Positions 26,207 to 32,007 of a stretch of 64,000 bases of DNA are shown here, in pieces (position 1 is the first letter of the stretch; every line of letters begins with the position of its first letter). The notes beneath the pieces were generated by a model. It worked only from the letters and a program-made list of their open reading frames with translations, ran no database searches and had not been told where the DNA came from. Origin of the DNA: Thermoplasmata archaeon (GTDB taxonomy: Archaea; Thermoplasmatota; Thermoplasmata; Lutacidiplasmatales; UBA184); assembly GCA_021790425.1 (NCBI GenBank), contig JAJYEA010000001.1, forward strand, positions 67,015 to 131,014. The letters are read 5' to 3'. A program made the translations under genes and the position numbers.

Positions 26207-29200
26207 TTATTCGCGCTCCGAGTAGGGTGGGTGCCCTTGGTCGCGTGCGGGTGGGGGAGTGCTCTCAGCCTTCCTCCTTCGCAGAATTCCGGCGGCAACA
26301 GCGACCACTATGAACGCTACAATCGCCCCCAGCAGGACGTAGCCGAGGTATCCCGGTAGTCCCAGAAAAGTAGGGGAGCCGGTGTTGGTCCCCGGGCTGG
26401 GGGAAACCTTCGTGAAACCGATGGATCGGGTAACGTTCGCTCCCTCGACCAAGACAGCCCCCGAGGACGTGCTTGCCGAGTATCCTGGGACGGACCCCAC
26501 GCTAAAGGAATAGCCCGTAGTGTTGTTGAGCAGCTTCCCAAAGGCGATGGTCGGAGTGATCGAAGATCGGTTGGAACCATTGAGGGTCACGGACCAGGAA
26601 GTTCCAGCGAGGAGCCCCGATTCGGTGAAGGTGACAGTAAACGTAGGCGGAGTGGCAGCCGTCTTCGTAAAGGTGATGACTCGGAGCACATTGGCTCCAT
26701 CAACCACCACGGACCCGGAGGGAGGGTTGGCGGAGTAACCGAACACCGCTCCGACCGAGAAGAGGTATCCCGCAGTGTTGTTGGTCATGTTGGGGAATGC
26801 AATGCCCGATTGGACGGTGGAACTGTTCGTGCCGTTGAAAGTCACGGACCAGGGCGTCCCGGATGGCAATCCTGACCCTTGGAAGGTCACCGTATAGCTC
26901 GACGTGGAGGATGTCCTGGTGAAGGAGATGGCTTCTGTCACATTCCCACCGTTTACGGTGATGTTTCCTGACGAGGGAGTGGTGACGAAACTGGCTATGC
27001 CTCCAGCAGTAAACGGGTAGGTTCCGTTCGATTCCGTGAAGGTGATGGTCGAGGTGTTCGAACTCCCCAGACGGCCACTCAGAGTCACGTTCCAATTAGT
27101 ACCCCCTGTAAGACCCGTCTCAGTGAACGTAACACGGTACTTCGGAGCCGGGGCACCTGCCGCCACGATAGAAACCGTTCCCTGTCGCTCATTGCTGACG
27201 TAAACACAGCCGTTTGCGTCATCATATGCCGCCCCGACAGGGCCGGACCCAACGGGAAGCGCCGCTACTACGTGGTTGGTCACGTCCGAGATGACGCTCA
27301 CATTGTTCGAGTCCCAGTTTGTGACAAACATCTCATCGGTGTTGCCACCATAGGCCACCCACTGAGGGTCAGAACCCACGGGGACCGTGGTGACCACCGT
27401 GTCAGTCACGTCCGAGATGACGCTCACGTCGTTCGAGCCAGCGTTCGCGACGAACACCTCGTCTTTCCCGCTGTCGATTGCCAAAGCATCTGGGCTAACA
27501 CCAACGTTGACCCAGCCCACGATGGCGTTGCTGGTATCCGAAATTATGCTCACGTTATCCGAGTAGTAGTTTGCCACAAACACCTCTCCCCGTTGGGCGT
27601 CGTAGGCTACGCTCCAGGCGTCGAACATTCCGCCCGGAGAGATTGTAGCCACCACTTTGTTGCTCGAATCTGACACCACACTCACAAAGTTCTGTCCAGC
27701 GACGAAGATCTCGCCTTTTCCCTGGTCATAGGCCAAGCCGATGGGGTTTCCCACCCCGTGAATTGTGGCGATCACGGTGTTGTTGGTTTCCGAAATCACG
27801 CTAAGGGTCCCCGAAGCGTCGTTGGCGACAAAGACCTCGTGCTTGCCACTGTCGTAGATCAAGCCCCAGGGGTTTGGTTCGACGGGCACGGTGGCGATAG
27901 CGGTGTCGCTCGCGTCCGAGATTACACTGACGTTGTTCGAAACCGACTCCGTGAGAAAGACCTCGCCAATCCCACTGTCGTCATACGCGACCCCGAAGGG
28001 AGATACCCCCACGGTGATGGTGGCCACCACTGCGTTGCTCGCATCCGAGATCACACTTACGTTCTCTGAATTACTCTTCGTGACAAAAAGATCCCCCTTG
28101 GCACTGTCATACGCCACGCCGACGGGACTCATCCCCACGGCAACGTTGGCGACCAAAGTGTCGTTCGCGTCCGAGATCACACTTAGGGTGCCCGAGAGCC
28201 AGTTTGCTACGGCGACCTCACCCGTCCCGTTGTCGTAGGCCACTCCGTCGGGGCTGCTTCCCACGCGGATCGTAGCCACCACCGTATTGTTAGCATCCGA
28301 AATCACATCCGCGTTGGTTGAATACTCGTTTGCGACGAAAACCTCGCCCTTCCCGCCATCGTAGGCCAGACCCGCAGGTCCAGACCCCACGGCGATGGTC
28401 GCCCTCACCGTGTCGTTGTTCGCCGAGATCACACTCACATTGTCCGAGTTCGTGTTCGAAACAAAAACCTCACCCCTGGCGCTGTCATACGCAGCTCCAT
28501 CAGGGTTTGTGCCCACATTGACAGTGGCGACCACCTTGTTGCTGCTGACGGAGATCACGCTCACGTTGTTCGAGTTGTAGTTTGCGACAAAGACCTCACC
28601 CATCGCGGCATCATACGCTAGCGCGAGTGGTCCTGACCCGACGGGGACGGTCGAGACCACGGAGTTGTTCCCATCGGAAACCACGCTCACCGTGTTCGAG
28701 GCTTGGTTTGCAACGAAGATCTCACCCACCCCGCTGTCATACGCCAACGCGTAGGGGTCTGAGCCTACGGTGACATTCGCGACCAACCGGTCGCTCACGT
28801 CTGAAATCACGCCTACGGAGTTCACATTGCCTGCGACAAAGAGTTCCCCCTTCCCGCTGTCATACACTACACCCCCAGGGTCCCAGCCATTTGCAGCGAG
28901 AAAGTTGCCGGGGACCAGTGTGTTGTTGGCGAGGACCAGCGTGTCCTTCACGTACGGAAGTACGGAGGTGTGGTGGGTCGGAGACAGTCGATGTTCTACG
29001 CCTTGCGATGGGGTAGCATCAATGCTTCTCGTGGGAGACATGGCCACGGCATCCCTGACTTGACCCAACGCCGTGAGGTGGGGGGGACGAACCTGGATAG
29101 CTATCGACGGCCCCGGCAGGATTGCCAGAACGACAATCGCCGTCACAATCAACAGATTGAACGGCCTGCGCGGTGACCGTGCCACATGGCAAGGGAACGG

Positions 29201-29320
29201 TGCGTGAGGAAAACCTTGTCGCCCCCCTAACGCGTCCCCTGGTCTCGATAGTATCTGGCACTCTTCTCTGGCGAAAGATTGACCCCGACTGTCGAGAGGG
29301 AAGCCGCGTTCCATGGGCAC
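26207..29320 (-). CDS. cell-surface YVTN/NHL beta-propeller repeat protein with 3 C-terminal thermopsin-like ~100-aa repeats and a C-terminal TM anchor
   Basis: ~13 copies of a ~42-aa repeat (VANxxSNxVSVISDxxNxVVATIxVGxxPxGxAYD). Three repeats of the form YxVTFTESGLxxGTxWSVTLNG. Signal-peptide-like RRPFNLLIVTAIVVLAILPGPSIA. C-terminal helix LGAIVAFIVVAVAAGIL plus RRRK. A likely GTG start near 29184 would trim the N-terminus. Confidence 0.75.
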   Translation of the reverse strand: MPMERGFPLDSRGQSFAREECQILSRPGDALGGRQGFPHAPFPCHVARSPRRPFNLLIVTAIVVLAILPGPSIAIQVRPPHLTALGQVRDAVAMSPTRSIDATPSQGVEHRLSPTHHTSVLPYVKDTLVLANNTLVPGNFLAANGWDPGGVVYDSGKGELFVAGNVNSVGVISDVSDRLVANVTVGSDPYALAYDSGVGEIFVANQASNTVSVVSDGNNSVVSTVPVGSGPLALAYDAAMGEVFVANYNSNNVSVISVSSNKVVATVNVGTNPDGAAYDSARGEVFVSNTNSDNVSVISANNDTVRATIAVGSGPAGLAYDGGKGEVFVANEYSTNADVISDANNTVVATIRVGSSPDGVAYDNGTGEVAVANWLSGTLSVISDANDTLVANVAVGMSPVGVAYDSAKGDLFVTKSNSENVSVISDASNAVVATITVGVSPFGVAYDDSGIGEVFLTESVSNNVSVISDASDTAIATVPVEPNPWGLIYDSGKHEVFVANDASGTLSVISETNNTVIATIHGVGNPIGLAYDQGKGEIFVAGQNFVSVVSDSSNKVVATISPGGMFDAWSVAYDAQRGEVFVANYYSDNVSIISDTSNAIVGWVNVGVSPDALAIDSGKDEVFVANAGSNDVSVISDVTDTVVTTVPVGSDPQWVAYGGNTDEMFVTNWDSNNVSVISDVTNHVVAALPVGSGPVGAAYDDANGCVYVSNERQGTVSIVAAGAPAPKYRVTFTETGLTGGTNWNVTLSGRLGSSNTSTITFTESNGTYPFTAGGIASFVTTPSSGNITVNGGNVTEAISFTRTSSTSSYTVTFQGSGLPSGTPWSVTFNGTNSSTVQSGIAFPNMTNNTAGYLFSVGAVFGYSANPPSGSVVVDGANVLRVITFTKTAATPPTFTVTFTESGLLAGTSWSVTLNGSNRSSITPTIAFGKLLNNTTGYSFSVGSVPGYSASTSSGAVLVEGANVTRSIGFTKVSPSPGTNTGSPTFLGLPGYLGYVLLGAIVAFIVVAVAAGILRRRKAESTPPPARDQGHPPYSERE

Positions 29321-29556: not shown

Positions 29557-30132
29557 TCAGGCGGCGCGCACGGCAATCCCGATCTCGGCAAAGTGGAAGG
29601 CCCACCGGCGAAAGCCACGGGAGTCATGGTAAGAGAGGGCTAGCCCCGAACGCAGCAGGGCGGAGCGCACCAGGTCCTTGTGGAACGCCTCCACGTAGAG
29701 GAGCCTCCCCCCGGGACGGAGCACCCGGAAGATCTCCCGCATCCCCCGCTCGATGGCCGCCGCATCCCCGAGGTGATGGAGCATCATGTGGGCGACCACG
29801 AGATCGAAGGAGGCGTCCGGATAGGGGAGGCGGGTGGCATCGGCGCGCTCCACCACGAACGCCGACGGGACCTGCGGGTAGGCCCGTGCCAGCGTGGCCC
29901 GGGCGAGCTCTACCTGCGCCGGGTCGTAGTCGGTCACGTGGACCTCCAACGGATGGTACGTTTCGTAGAGGAGCTTCGCGAAGGACCCATTCCCCGCCCC
30001 CAACTCCAGGACCCGGGCGCGCTCGGGCAGCGAGAACCGGACTTCCCCCCGCAACCGGGCGAGGAGCCGTTCGAACGGGCGGACTCCCCGCCGGTTCACG
30101 AACCACTTCTCGAACCGGGACATCTCCGTCAT
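29557..30132 (-). CDS. class I SAM-dependent methyltransferase (Methyltransf_11-like)
   Basis: VLELGAGNGSFAKLL motif I and DLVVAHMMLHHL. ATG at 30132 (MTEMSRFEKW) overlaps the PadR stop (ATGA). Confidence 0.75.
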   Translation of the reverse strand: MTEMSRFEKWFVNRRGVRPFERLLARLRGEVRFSLPERARVLELGAGNGSFAKLLYETYHPLEVHVTDYDPAQVELARATLARAYPQVPSAFVVERADATRLPYPDASFDLVVAHMMLHHLGDAAAIERGMREIFRVLRPGGRLLYVEAFHKDLVRSALLRSGLALSYHDSRGFRRWAFHFAEIGIAVRAA

Positions 30133-30569
30133 GGACCCCCCGGGGACGAGGGTCCTCGTCGCAAGCGCGCCCATCGTTCGACCAGCGCGTCGATCCGGAC
30201 CGGATCGGCCCGATCCCGCACCGGGTCCGCGCGGGCGAGGTCCTCGAGATACTCCGTAAGGCCCTCGATCTCCGTGACCACCTCGGCCGCGGTGCGCGGC
30301 CCGGGGGTCCAGCGGGCCCCAGGAGAGCGGGACGCCCTCGTCGCGAGCTCGTAACGGCCGTCGCCCCGCTTCCGGATGAGCCCTTCGTCCGAGAGCTCCT
30401 TCAGGCGGGGATAGATCGACCCGGGTGACGGGCGCCAATGATGGTGGTGGCTCCGCCGCTCGATTAGGTCCATCAATTCCATCCCGCTCAACGGCCCCGC
30501 TTCCAGAAGACGCAGGATGAGCGGCCGCAGCATCCCCCTCCGCCGATAGAATCCCACCGAGTGCCACAT
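30129..30569 (-). CDS. PadR-family transcriptional regulator
   Basis: PadR wHTH signature LILRLLEAGPLSGMELMDLIERRS...W.PSPGSIYPRLKELSDEGLI. ATG at 30569. Translationally coupled to the downstream methyltransferase. Confidence 0.8.
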   Translation of the reverse strand: MWHSVGFYRRRGMLRPLILRLLEAGPLSGMELMDLIERRSHHHHWRPSPGSIYPRLKELSDEGLIRKRGDGRYELATRASRSPGARWTPGPRTAAEVVTEIEGLTEYLEDLARADPVRDRADPVRIDALVERWARLRRGPSSPGGP

Positions 30570-30570
30570 G

Positions 30571-30602
30571 ATATCGTTTACCCGATATCGGTTAAACGAT
30601 AT
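30571..30602. promoter_or_regulatory. 32-bp near-perfect palindrome ATATCGTTTACCCGATATCGGTTAAACGATAT overlapping the PadR TATA box: candidate autoregulatory operator
   Basis: 30 of 32 positions are self-complementary. The central perfect 10-bp palindrome is CCGATATCGG. The embedded gtttaac sits ~25 nt upstream of the PadR ATG. Confidence 0.5.
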
Positions 30603-30651
30603 CGGGATTTAAGCTCTTCGGACGGGTCTCGTCCGGGTGCAGCCCAGGGAG

Positions 30652-32007
30652 TCAGTGGGGGGGACCGCCCTTCGTCCGGAGGTCGAACGTCCATCCTTCC
30701 GGCTCGGAGCGCTTCCGTTCGGACGCCCGGGGAACGGCGGGTGGCGTCTCGCCCACTTCGATCCGGAAACCGAGCGCCGGGGAGACGAGGGCGGGCCCGG
30801 GTTGCGCGAGCTTCGTGAGCGGTGCGGGCATCGGGAAGGTGACGCGGGTGGCGTCGGAGGAGTATTCCGGCAGGGCCCCCGGGGTCACCGATCTCGCTCC
30901 CAGCCGGTGCTGGCTGAGGAACGGATGGAAACGGAACCCCTCCTTGTCGTCCTCCCAGTCCAGCAGGCGGGCGAAGCAGAGGGGCGCCACGACGGAGTAG
31001 ACCAGCCCTCCGCTCCCGGAGTCGTCACAGAGCTGAGCTACCGTCTGAGGGAGCAGGAGGGAGCCCGAGCGCTTCCGCATCCGGTCGATGACGAGCATCT
31101 GGAGGGGGTCCCACTCGAACGTCTCGAAGATCCGCTGGCCCAGGTCGTTGCCCTGGGTGGCGAGCGTCTCGCCGTACCACCGGCGCACGGGCGCGTCCGC
31201 CCCCTCCCCCACCAGGGAGTAGAGGCGGTTGAGGGCGAGCCCGACCCCGGGCTCGGCAAGACCATCCACCACCCCGGCCGCCGCGGGAAGCCCGAACCGG
31301 GAGGCCTCGAAGAGTCGGGTGAACCCGAGGAACCCCGAGACCCACGAGCCCGTGTCGACCTCACCGTCAGCGTACAGCGAAGGGTAGAGCAGGCCGAGAT
31401 ACGCCCGGGGAACGTGCGCCAGGGAACTCATGAAGAGCGAACGAGGGTTGCGGGTCGGGAGCAGGGTCAGGAGCGAGTTCAGGAAGCGCGTGACGGCGTC
31501 CACTGCGAGCAGTGGGTTCCGTTCGAGGAGTTGCATCGTGTCGCTCGGCGTGCGCGTGTTGCTCGGGGAGGCCGGGCGTATCTCCTTCGGGAGCGACCCG
31601 AGGATCGCGCTCCCCTGTTGGAACGCCCCCTTGGCAATCGTGAGGAGCTGAGGCTCCCTGGAGTCCAGGGCCACGGAGATCCGGTTCAGGCCTGCCTCCC
31701 CCATCGTCTTCGCCGTGGCCAGGTGACGTGCGACCAGGGCGGGGTCGACCCCCACACCGTAGAACGCACGCACGAAGCTCCCGATCGCCTGGGAGTCGAA
31801 CCGCCCGTCGTGGAACCCGCCCAGGAGGAGCCGACGGACGGCAGGGGGCACCTGGCCGAGCTGCCAGCGCGCCCCCTGCCGCAACGCCCCCGCGATGGAG
31901 AGGACGTCCCGGCTCGTCTCGACCAAGGGAGGCAACGTCGATTGGAAGTAGCTCTTCCACTCGGATGCATCGGTAAAACGGAACCCTGGGTTGAATCGGT
32001 CGGGCAC
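30652..32007 (-). CDS. hypothetical protein (451 aa), immediately upstream of PadR on the same strand
   Basis: Protein-like composition, unlike the R/G/E-rich antisense frame. GTG start at 32007 with an AT-rich box ~25 nt upstream. No recognisable domain. Confidence 0.5.

Follow-up and report, generated by a model that had tools for sequence, protein, structure and literature searches.

Why a long A+T-rich palindrome should end one base before the start codon of a gene for a PadR-family regulator, and whether it is the DNA on which that regulator acts, is the question raised by this locus. The sequence, 30571-30602 = ATATCGTTTACCCGATATCGGTTAAACGATAT, lies in the 64-kb stretch of DNA that was analysed in full, here termed the window, and, as an earlier note had claimed, matches its own reverse complement at 30 of 32 positions (15 of 16 arm pairs). 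An independent repeat search extends it by one pair to a 34-bp palindrome (30570-30603; 94% complementarity). With all centres of the window scored for 16-bp arms, this one is at the top with 15/16, the next best being 13/16, and the highest score in 200 dinucleotide-preserving shuffles of the window was 14, attained by 17 of them. The AT-richness pointed out earlier is borne out by direct count, G+C being 34% in the 32 bp vs 67% in the window. The parts of the site are as follows.

30570..30603, no strand assigned: candidate operator, a 34-bp palindrome with 16 of 17 arm pairs, including 30571-30602
30573..30600, no strand assigned: 28-bp family-conserved core, ATCG-N6-CGATATCG-N6-CGAT, the sole 16/16 match in the window
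30583..30590, no strand assigned: central CGATATCG unit, the best-conserved element of the site, centred 17 nt upstream of the ATG
30597..30604, no strand assigned: distal CGATATCG unit, 14 bp from the central unit
30569..30576, no strand assigned: proximal unit, reading CGATATCA on the gene strand and ending in the A of the start codon

The three CGATATCG-type units are in strict 14-bp phase, and from this phasing come a second, overlapping dyad (30581-30606) and a 14-nt direct repeat. A search of the 64-kb window for further CCGATATCGG-centred dyads, proposed in the earlier note, found none; CCGATATCGG with at most one mismatch has five matches there vs 3.25 expected, and matches to the 28-bp core other than the one before padR all score 12/16 or lower. 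Since the core is single in the 64 kb, a regulon is not definable from the window.

The local genes, all three of them on the minus strand, are these.

30129..30569, minus strand: padR, for the proposed operator-binding regulator; 146 aa plus stop, with a PF03551 match
29557..30132, minus strand: class I SAM-dependent methyltransferase gene; 191 aa plus stop, with Methyltransf_11/25 matches
30652-32007, minus strand: 451-aa ORF directly upstream of padR, without a Pfam or NCBIfam match

The palindrome is, as had been stated, directly upstream of the padR start, ending one base before the ATG at 30569. That this is the start, and not Met13 at 30533, is argued by an N-terminal ‘MW’ that is common to homologues and falls in the same alignment column; in codons 1-13 the differences from a 69%-identical orthologue (locus L001) are four synonymous changes and no others. 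padR and the methyltransferase gene overlap by 4 nt (ATGA), and the methyltransferase, for which no NCBIfam equivalog scored above cut-off, is presumed to be a co-transcribed target of the regulation. The 451-aa ORF ends ~50 nt upstream of the palindrome and was otherwise encountered, among all fetched loci, only in the near-identical contig L002. Between its stop (30652) and a TATA-like box considered below is a perfect 6-bp G+C-rich hairpin, CGGACG-GGTCT-CGTCCG (30619-30635), without a subsequent T-run, that could be the 3′ end of the upstream transcript, or meaningless. Downstream of the padR-methyltransferase pair, 26207-29320 (minus strand) encodes a probable surface protein of 1037 aa that has many YNCE/NHL-type beta-propeller repeats and, at its C-terminus, repeated Thr/Ser-rich modules and a likely membrane anchor.

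The regulator is a member of the PadR family by Pfam, by sequence and by fold. The match to PF03551, the Pfam PadR family (E 9.1e-10; 38.8 bits vs a gathering cut-off of 27), is present in all homologues. An AF2 monomer model (pLDDT 76.5) has helices at residues 14-22, 29-39 and 49-61, strands at 65-67 and 73-75, and then helices at 94-114 and 123-138, i.e. the alpha1-alpha2-alpha3-beta1-beta2 wing arrangement followed by C-terminal dimerisation helices. The Foldseek list of PDB matches is dominated by PadR-family entries (B. subtilis PadR, LmrR, Rv3488, VanR, hsRosR and AphA), at scores that are weak (best E 2e-4; TM 0.35-0.47), and the nearest solved relatives are PadR-family proteins both by sequence and by fold. 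As the nearest named homologues are in Thermoplasmata archaea, archaeal promoter rules apply.

In B. subtilis PadR the signature DNA-contact residues are Tyr20, Tyr42 and Lys67 (PMC5728393). The equivalents of the latter two are invariant in the subfamily to which the window's PadR belongs, as Y53 and R72; the equivalent of Tyr20 is Met in the window's protein and Ala, Val or Met across the subfamily, within which the recognition-helix segment WRPSPGS(I/V)YP is also invariant. Just before the recognition helix is a His-rich loop, SHHHHW (residues 41-45; 30435-30449, minus strand), which the window's PadR shares with its three closest relatives (P0001-P0003) alone; other members have T-HGWW or similar. 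The downstream methyltransferase has weak, sub-threshold matches to ArsM-type models, and loop and methyltransferase together are a speculative hint of metal(loid) sensing.

If the palindrome is the regulator's site it should travel with the regulator. The orthologue at L001 retains the padR-methyltransferase pair, in flanking DNA that is unrelated and with an upstream neighbour that is different and divergent; the 35 bp before its ATG are GGTTATCGTATATCCGATATCGGGTAAGCGATACC, with TATCG..CCGATATCGG..CGATA at the same distance from the ATG as in the window. More broadly, 80 loci encoding PadR relatives were fetched, starts were assigned for 37 promoters (36 archaeal loci plus the window), and these were scored against ATCG-N6-CGATATCG-N6-CGAT at its 16 specified positions, a match of at least 14/16 being termed a strong site. 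A strong site is present within 90 nt upstream of the padR start in 26 of the 37 (the window included), and in 14 of those 26 the core is a perfect 16/16. Control DNA is essentially devoid of the core: of 6325 control stretches of 102 bp taken from these loci the best scored 13, and 0/6325 reached 14. In 22 of the 26 strong-site promoters the dyad is centred 12-20 nt before the start. The 26 are spread over Thermoplasmata, Bathyarchaeota/Bathyarchaeia, Nitrososphaerales and other Thermoproteota; there are strong sites too in Micrarchaeota, Methanocellaceae and Methanobacterium loci, but these are further upstream or the start is unassigned. The remaining 11 of the 37 promoters have no strong site within 90 nt of the start, and in two of them (L011 and L028) there is one further upstream. 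The proposal in the earlier note of a dyad operator for PadR autoregulation is strongly supported by the occurrence of the 28-bp core before genes of this subfamily across archaeal phyla.

The columns that were not used for anchoring are informative as well. In the 26 aligned sites they comprise symmetric W4 tracts, in which T prevails distally and A proximally, and a C and a G that flank the central unit, so that the full 28-mer is a true consensus palindrome. At a few loci the site is found instead before an operon that includes padR or adjoins it: at L012 the operon behind a perfect site is one for a DrrA-like ABC ATPase and an ABC-2 permease, upstream of padR, and at L028 the site is before an FMN-reductase-padR operon. 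To judge from these arrangements, the motif is tracking the operon and not the position of the padR gene. In most relatives padR is followed by a gene for a DrrA-like ABC ATPase. The methyltransferase was considered as a conserved partner of padR and rejected as such, since among the relatives only L001 and the near-identical L002 have it beside padR, and others carry ABC exporters instead. Two tandem copies of the motif are upstream of padR at L036 (labelled Methanobacteriota archaeon; 2896-2960), a 15/16 site whose centre precedes the start by 52 nt, and a weaker proximal copy.

Actinobacterial relatives share the WRPSPGS(I/V)YP helix, and a site of at least 14/16 is nowhere in their ~6-kb loci despite this; helix alone thus does not predict site. 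A single 13/16 match in one of them (L070) was judged to be chance. Use of the actinobacterial genes as a promoter control was rejected, their long N-terminal extensions meaning that the inspected region is coding.

The reverse approach, from motif to gene, is also pertinent. An exact-pattern scan of metagenome contigs gave at least 120 loci, and the sites were split by A/T count at the eight spacer positions. Among the matches listed, at least 24 loci carry a subfamily padR in the correct orientation, with the padR start 12-114 nt from the motif in 23 of the 24 and 392 nt from it in the other (L161). With spacers of at least 7/8 A/T, a subfamily padR adjoins in the right orientation at 20 of 40 sites among the matches listed, and of the remaining 20 at least nine are in front of stand-alone operons for a DrrA-like ABC-2 exporter or of genes for a SHOCT-domain membrane protein. 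With G+C-rich spacers (4/8 A/T or fewer) padR adjoins 0 of 33 sites among the matches listed, and such sites are random coding matches in high-G+C DNA. Since padR is found by the A/T-spacer sites and by none of the G+C-rich ones, the meaningful motif includes the A/T tracts; so constituted it appears to mark a small regulon built around the PadR subfamily. The SHOCT-domain genes, for small membrane proteins, that are preceded by the 28-bp motif (L108, L121, L122, L183, L093 and L180) are likely further members; five of the six products begin MSEHEWNRPRHFF..., and those five genes have a GGAGG-type ribosome-binding site ~30 nt downstream of the motif. A different element, ATCGATTA(CA/GG)CGATATCGCGATATCGAT, also fits the search pattern, without padR nearby (e.g. 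L084, L101, L125, L138, L159); present at approximately 35 metagenome loci at least, in contigs of 40-47% G+C, it was set aside as an unrelated repeat.

Taken with the symmetry and placement of the palindrome, the distribution of the motif makes it highly probable that the palindrome is the cognate operator of the adjacent PadR repressor and mediates negative autoregulation of the padR-methyltransferase operon. An operator of this type is a dyad of ~16-30 bp in the regulator's own promoter, and here, in what is predicted to be the promoter, a 34-bp palindrome abuts the ATG and is co-conserved with the regulator gene and essentially absent from control DNA. PadR proteins that have been studied attach as dimers to dyads of comparable length, the wing contacting the minor groove (PMC5728393; PMC7145548). 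The sites of B. subtilis PadR, RosR and MosR are TGT-N8-ACA, TGT-N10-ACA and TGT-N4-ACA (PMC7145548). That half-site is not the one present here, which is (T)ATCG-N6-CGAT(A), and the difference is one of specificity and no disqualifier for an operator role. In the searchable literature no member of this PadR subfamily has data on binding, transcription or start sites, and nothing relevant was found on the motif or on a characterised archaeal member; matches to CGATATCG in a Listeria PadR paper are assumed to be primers.

How the protein might sit on its site is suggested by the spacing. The functional core would be the 28 bp ATCG-nWWWWC-CGATATCG-GWWWWn-CGAT, which can be seen as two TATCG-N6-CGATA inverted repeats abutting at the central GATATC, each of a size for one winged-helix dimer. 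Because two recognition helices cannot fit the halves of a single 8-bp CGATATCG unit, the dimer dyads would be the spacer-centred (T)ATCG-N6-CGAT(A), 14-16 bp long, and the site is probably two abutting 16-bp dimer sites, with the two dimers side by side and, going by spacing alone, their centres 14 bp apart. Recognition helices would read the ATCG/CGAT half-sites, with the A/T tracts providing a narrow minor groove or bendability. The invariance of the WRPSPGS(I/V)YP helix is in line with that of the half-site, and this helix and the replacement of Tyr20 may underlie the new DNA specificity.

Closest in function are two ligand-responsive, autoregulating repressors of a detoxification enzyme or exporter, B. 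subtilis PadR (padC) and LmrR (lmrCD), which the present system resembles by analogy. Lactococcus lactis LmrR, of PadR subfamily-2, autoregulates and controls the adjacent lmrCD ABC multidrug exporter. It is among the best fold matches of the window's PadR, and its gene arrangement is paralleled in most relatives by the DrrA-like ABC ATPase and ABC-2 permease genes that come next; the differences are that in the window and L001 the presumed co-transcribed gene is for a SAM methyltransferase, that the operator sequence is not the same, and that the host is archaeal. On the padC operator (PDB 5X11; PMC5728393) a B. subtilis PadR dimer symmetrically occupies a ~16-bp dyad of ATGT-N8-ACAT type, comparable in size with the dyads here; the recognition helices enter the major groove and the wings the minor, and repression is relieved by a small ligand (PMC5728393). 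The half-sites differ (TGT-N8-ACA vs ATCG-N6-CGAT), the window's PadR is shorter (146 aa, with two C-terminal helices), and the bacterial system has a sigma-70 promoter with one dyad whereas here an archaeal TATA/BRE promoter has two abutting conserved dyads. Halobacterium salinarum RosR, a PadR/MarR-like wHTH protein, is archaeal and as a dimer binds a palindromic motif with indirect readout of minor-groove width (PMC7145548). Its motif, TGT-N10-ACA (PMC7145548), is unlike the site here, its fold similarity to the window's PadR is only distant, and its regulon is one of oxidative-stress response (PMC7145548, PMC3443676).

By the same analogy, the repressor would come off the DNA on meeting a ligand, perhaps a toxic hydrophobic or phenolic compound, and the methyltransferase would be induced, the genes induced in most relatives being those of an ABC-2 exporter instead. 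What a bound repressor would obstruct depends on which of two A/T-rich elements is the TATA box.

30607..30612, minus strand: TATA-like box TTAAAT, -43 to -38 from the ATG; the better-conserved TATA candidate
30591..30596, minus strand: TTTAAC, the TATA candidate of the earlier note, -27 to -22 from the ATG; at family level the distal W-tract spacer

The contention that the palindrome holds the only TATA-like hexamer does not hold in that form, as TTAAAT is just upstream, 4 nt beyond the 34-bp palindrome. An operator lying over the TATA box of a leaderless transcript, the geometry put forward at that time, survives as one of two possibilities, the alternative being an operator between TATA box and start codon. 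On the promoter alignment we incline to the latter, with TTAAAT as the TATA box and the operator covering the transcription start. Transcription would then begin near 30583, giving a leader of ~13 nt and an operator at roughly -17 to +10. Among the 26 aligned sites (25 other loci plus the window) the columns at -12 to -6 from the 28-mer are A/T-rich, with 100% at -10 and 88% at another; this upstream element is asymmetric, having no symmetric counterpart on the other side of the 28-mer, and in the family alignment it is preceded by A-rich BRE-like positions. L001 has TTAAGT where the window has TTAAAT. A further element, GTGCGT/GTGAGT, ~9-14 nt upstream of the TATA-like box (L006, L007, L010, L013, L015, L017, L080), is common in Thermoplasmata padR promoters and absent from the window's, with L001 having GGGCGTCA; it may be an extended BRE or the site of a second regulator.

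Archaeal precedents for an operator so placed come from other protein families. MDR1 of Archaeoglobus, and LrpA and Phr of Pyrococcus, have operators that are downstream of the TATA box and over the start site, and block RNA polymerase recruitment without displacing TBP/TFB. Their geometry would be matched here if TTAAAT (30607-30612) is the TATA box, the geometry at this locus being a predicted one; the proteins (DtxR, Lrp and ArsR-like) and their operators are different.

A start at or next to the ATG, with the internal TTTAAC as TATA box and the repressor in competition with TBP/TFB (Lrs14-type), is a rival on mechanism and not on the identity of the site, and is to be taken seriously even if we would not bet on it. 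The centre of TTTAAC precedes the ATG by ~25 nt, as is usual from TATA box to start in archaea, and at approximately five other ORFs in the window a W6 box is centred 25.5 to 28.5 nt upstream of the candidate ATG, which suggests that leaderless transcripts are common in the genome, with the W6 cases in the window (~12) being too few to infer a usual TATA-to-ATG distance. The start codon is inside the proximal half-site, or 0-5 nt after it, in 21 of the 26 aligned sites, across phyla, and so tight a coupling is easily explained if transcription starts at the ATG. Against this, the dyad symmetry of the palindrome's internal A/T tracts makes them look and behave like operator spacers; at five loci the internal tract is just ~18 nt from the ATG, too close; and in most loci there is the asymmetric and better TATA-like box, YTWAWW, fixed 6-12 nt upstream of the 28-mer. 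For repression the choice is of little consequence. The 34 bp immediately upstream of the start codon are wholly taken up by the site, and PadR bound there would block the archaeal pre-initiation complex. With the upstream TTAAAT as TATA box the step blocked would be RNA polymerase recruitment to the start site, and with the internal TTTAAC it would be TBP/TFB binding; repression would be the outcome under either geometry.

A more elaborate idea, and on present indications an unlikely one, is that the 14-bp phased CGATATCG units, of which there are two to four per promoter, nucleate an AspA-like side-by-side polymerisation of dimers over core promoter and start codon, in an ancient or widely transferred pan-archaeal detoxification switch. 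Were it true, the on/off response would be highly cooperative, and the repressor-operator pair would be portable among several archaeal phyla.

Co-occurrence of site and regulator gene is compatible with recognition of the site by a different factor, and one can also envisage an AspA-like assembly of several dimers of a PadR-fold protein in a role other than transcription, e.g. partition or chromatin; we regard both as improbable. AspA, from Sulfolobus plasmid pNOB8, is an archaeal PadR-fold protein with a palindromic site upstream of its own operon. It is of PadR subfamily-2 and binds DNA as a centromere protein, not as a regulator (PMC5728393), and side-by-side dimers could be seeded by the palindromic units here, which number two to four and are phased at 14 bp. 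AspA works with ParB and ParA in DNA segregation, and such genes are absent here: adjacent genes are not parA/parB-like, the neighbours being the methyltransferase, the 451-aa orphan ORF, ABC-2 exporters, FMN reductase or SHOCT-domain proteins, and methyltransferase, ABC-2 exporter, FMN reductase and SHOCT-protein neighbours are typical of a detoxification regulon. In addition the site is single in 64 kb, and always has a TATA-like box upstream of it and a start codon immediately downstream, hence is embedded in a promoter.

Slightly less credible again is that the palindrome acts as an RNA or DNA hairpin, whether as terminator or stabiliser for the upstream 451-aa gene or as a 5′-leader structure. 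The intergenic RNA does fold well (-35.7 kcal/mol; z = -4.3), with the palindrome as a long stem, and the proximity of the 451-aa ORF on the same strand is what such a role would call for. Yet there is no T-run or terminator-like site, Rfam gave no match at E up to 1, and the element is retained in L001 and in many loci without a co-directional upstream gene. Complementarity of the spacers, 0.545 within sites vs 0.495 between them, is not significant, 7.5% of permutations reaching 0.545, and with a transcription start at or within the site the RNA would never contain the whole stem. A chance or non-functional palindrome, e.g. three clustered GATATC (EcoRV-type) sites or the remnant of a mobile element, can be virtually dismissed: three of the window's six GATATC sites do lie in the palindrome region, but no shuffle attains the palindrome score, the element is conserved with padR across phyla, a second copy that might signal a mobile-element remnant is absent from the window, and the comparative data effectively refute the idea. 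A DNA-methylase link between GATATC and the downstream methyltransferase was also considered and rejected, the enzyme being a small-molecule class I methyltransferase.

With the PadR operator as the preferred reading, what is new is the half-site and the conserved double dyad; the kind of switch is already known and the regulatory principle is not new, so that this is a well-supported but ordinary kind of genetic switch. To our knowledge very few archaeal transcription-factor/operator pairs have been defined, and almost none for uncultured Thermoplasmata, Bathyarchaeia and soil Nitrososphaerales. For an uncharacterised PadR subfamily of several archaeal phyla the outcome is a precise candidate operator, ATCG-nW4C-CGATATCG-GW4n-CGAT, whose links to ABC-2 exporters, methyltransferase, FMN reductase and SHOCT-domain membrane proteins look like those of a stress or detoxification regulon. 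Its specificity, unlike the known TGT-Nx-ACA sites, offers structural comparison within the PadR family, and a compact repressor-operator pair would be of use for archaeal genetic tools. With such a motif, prediction of the regulon becomes possible directly from metagenome-assembled genomes.
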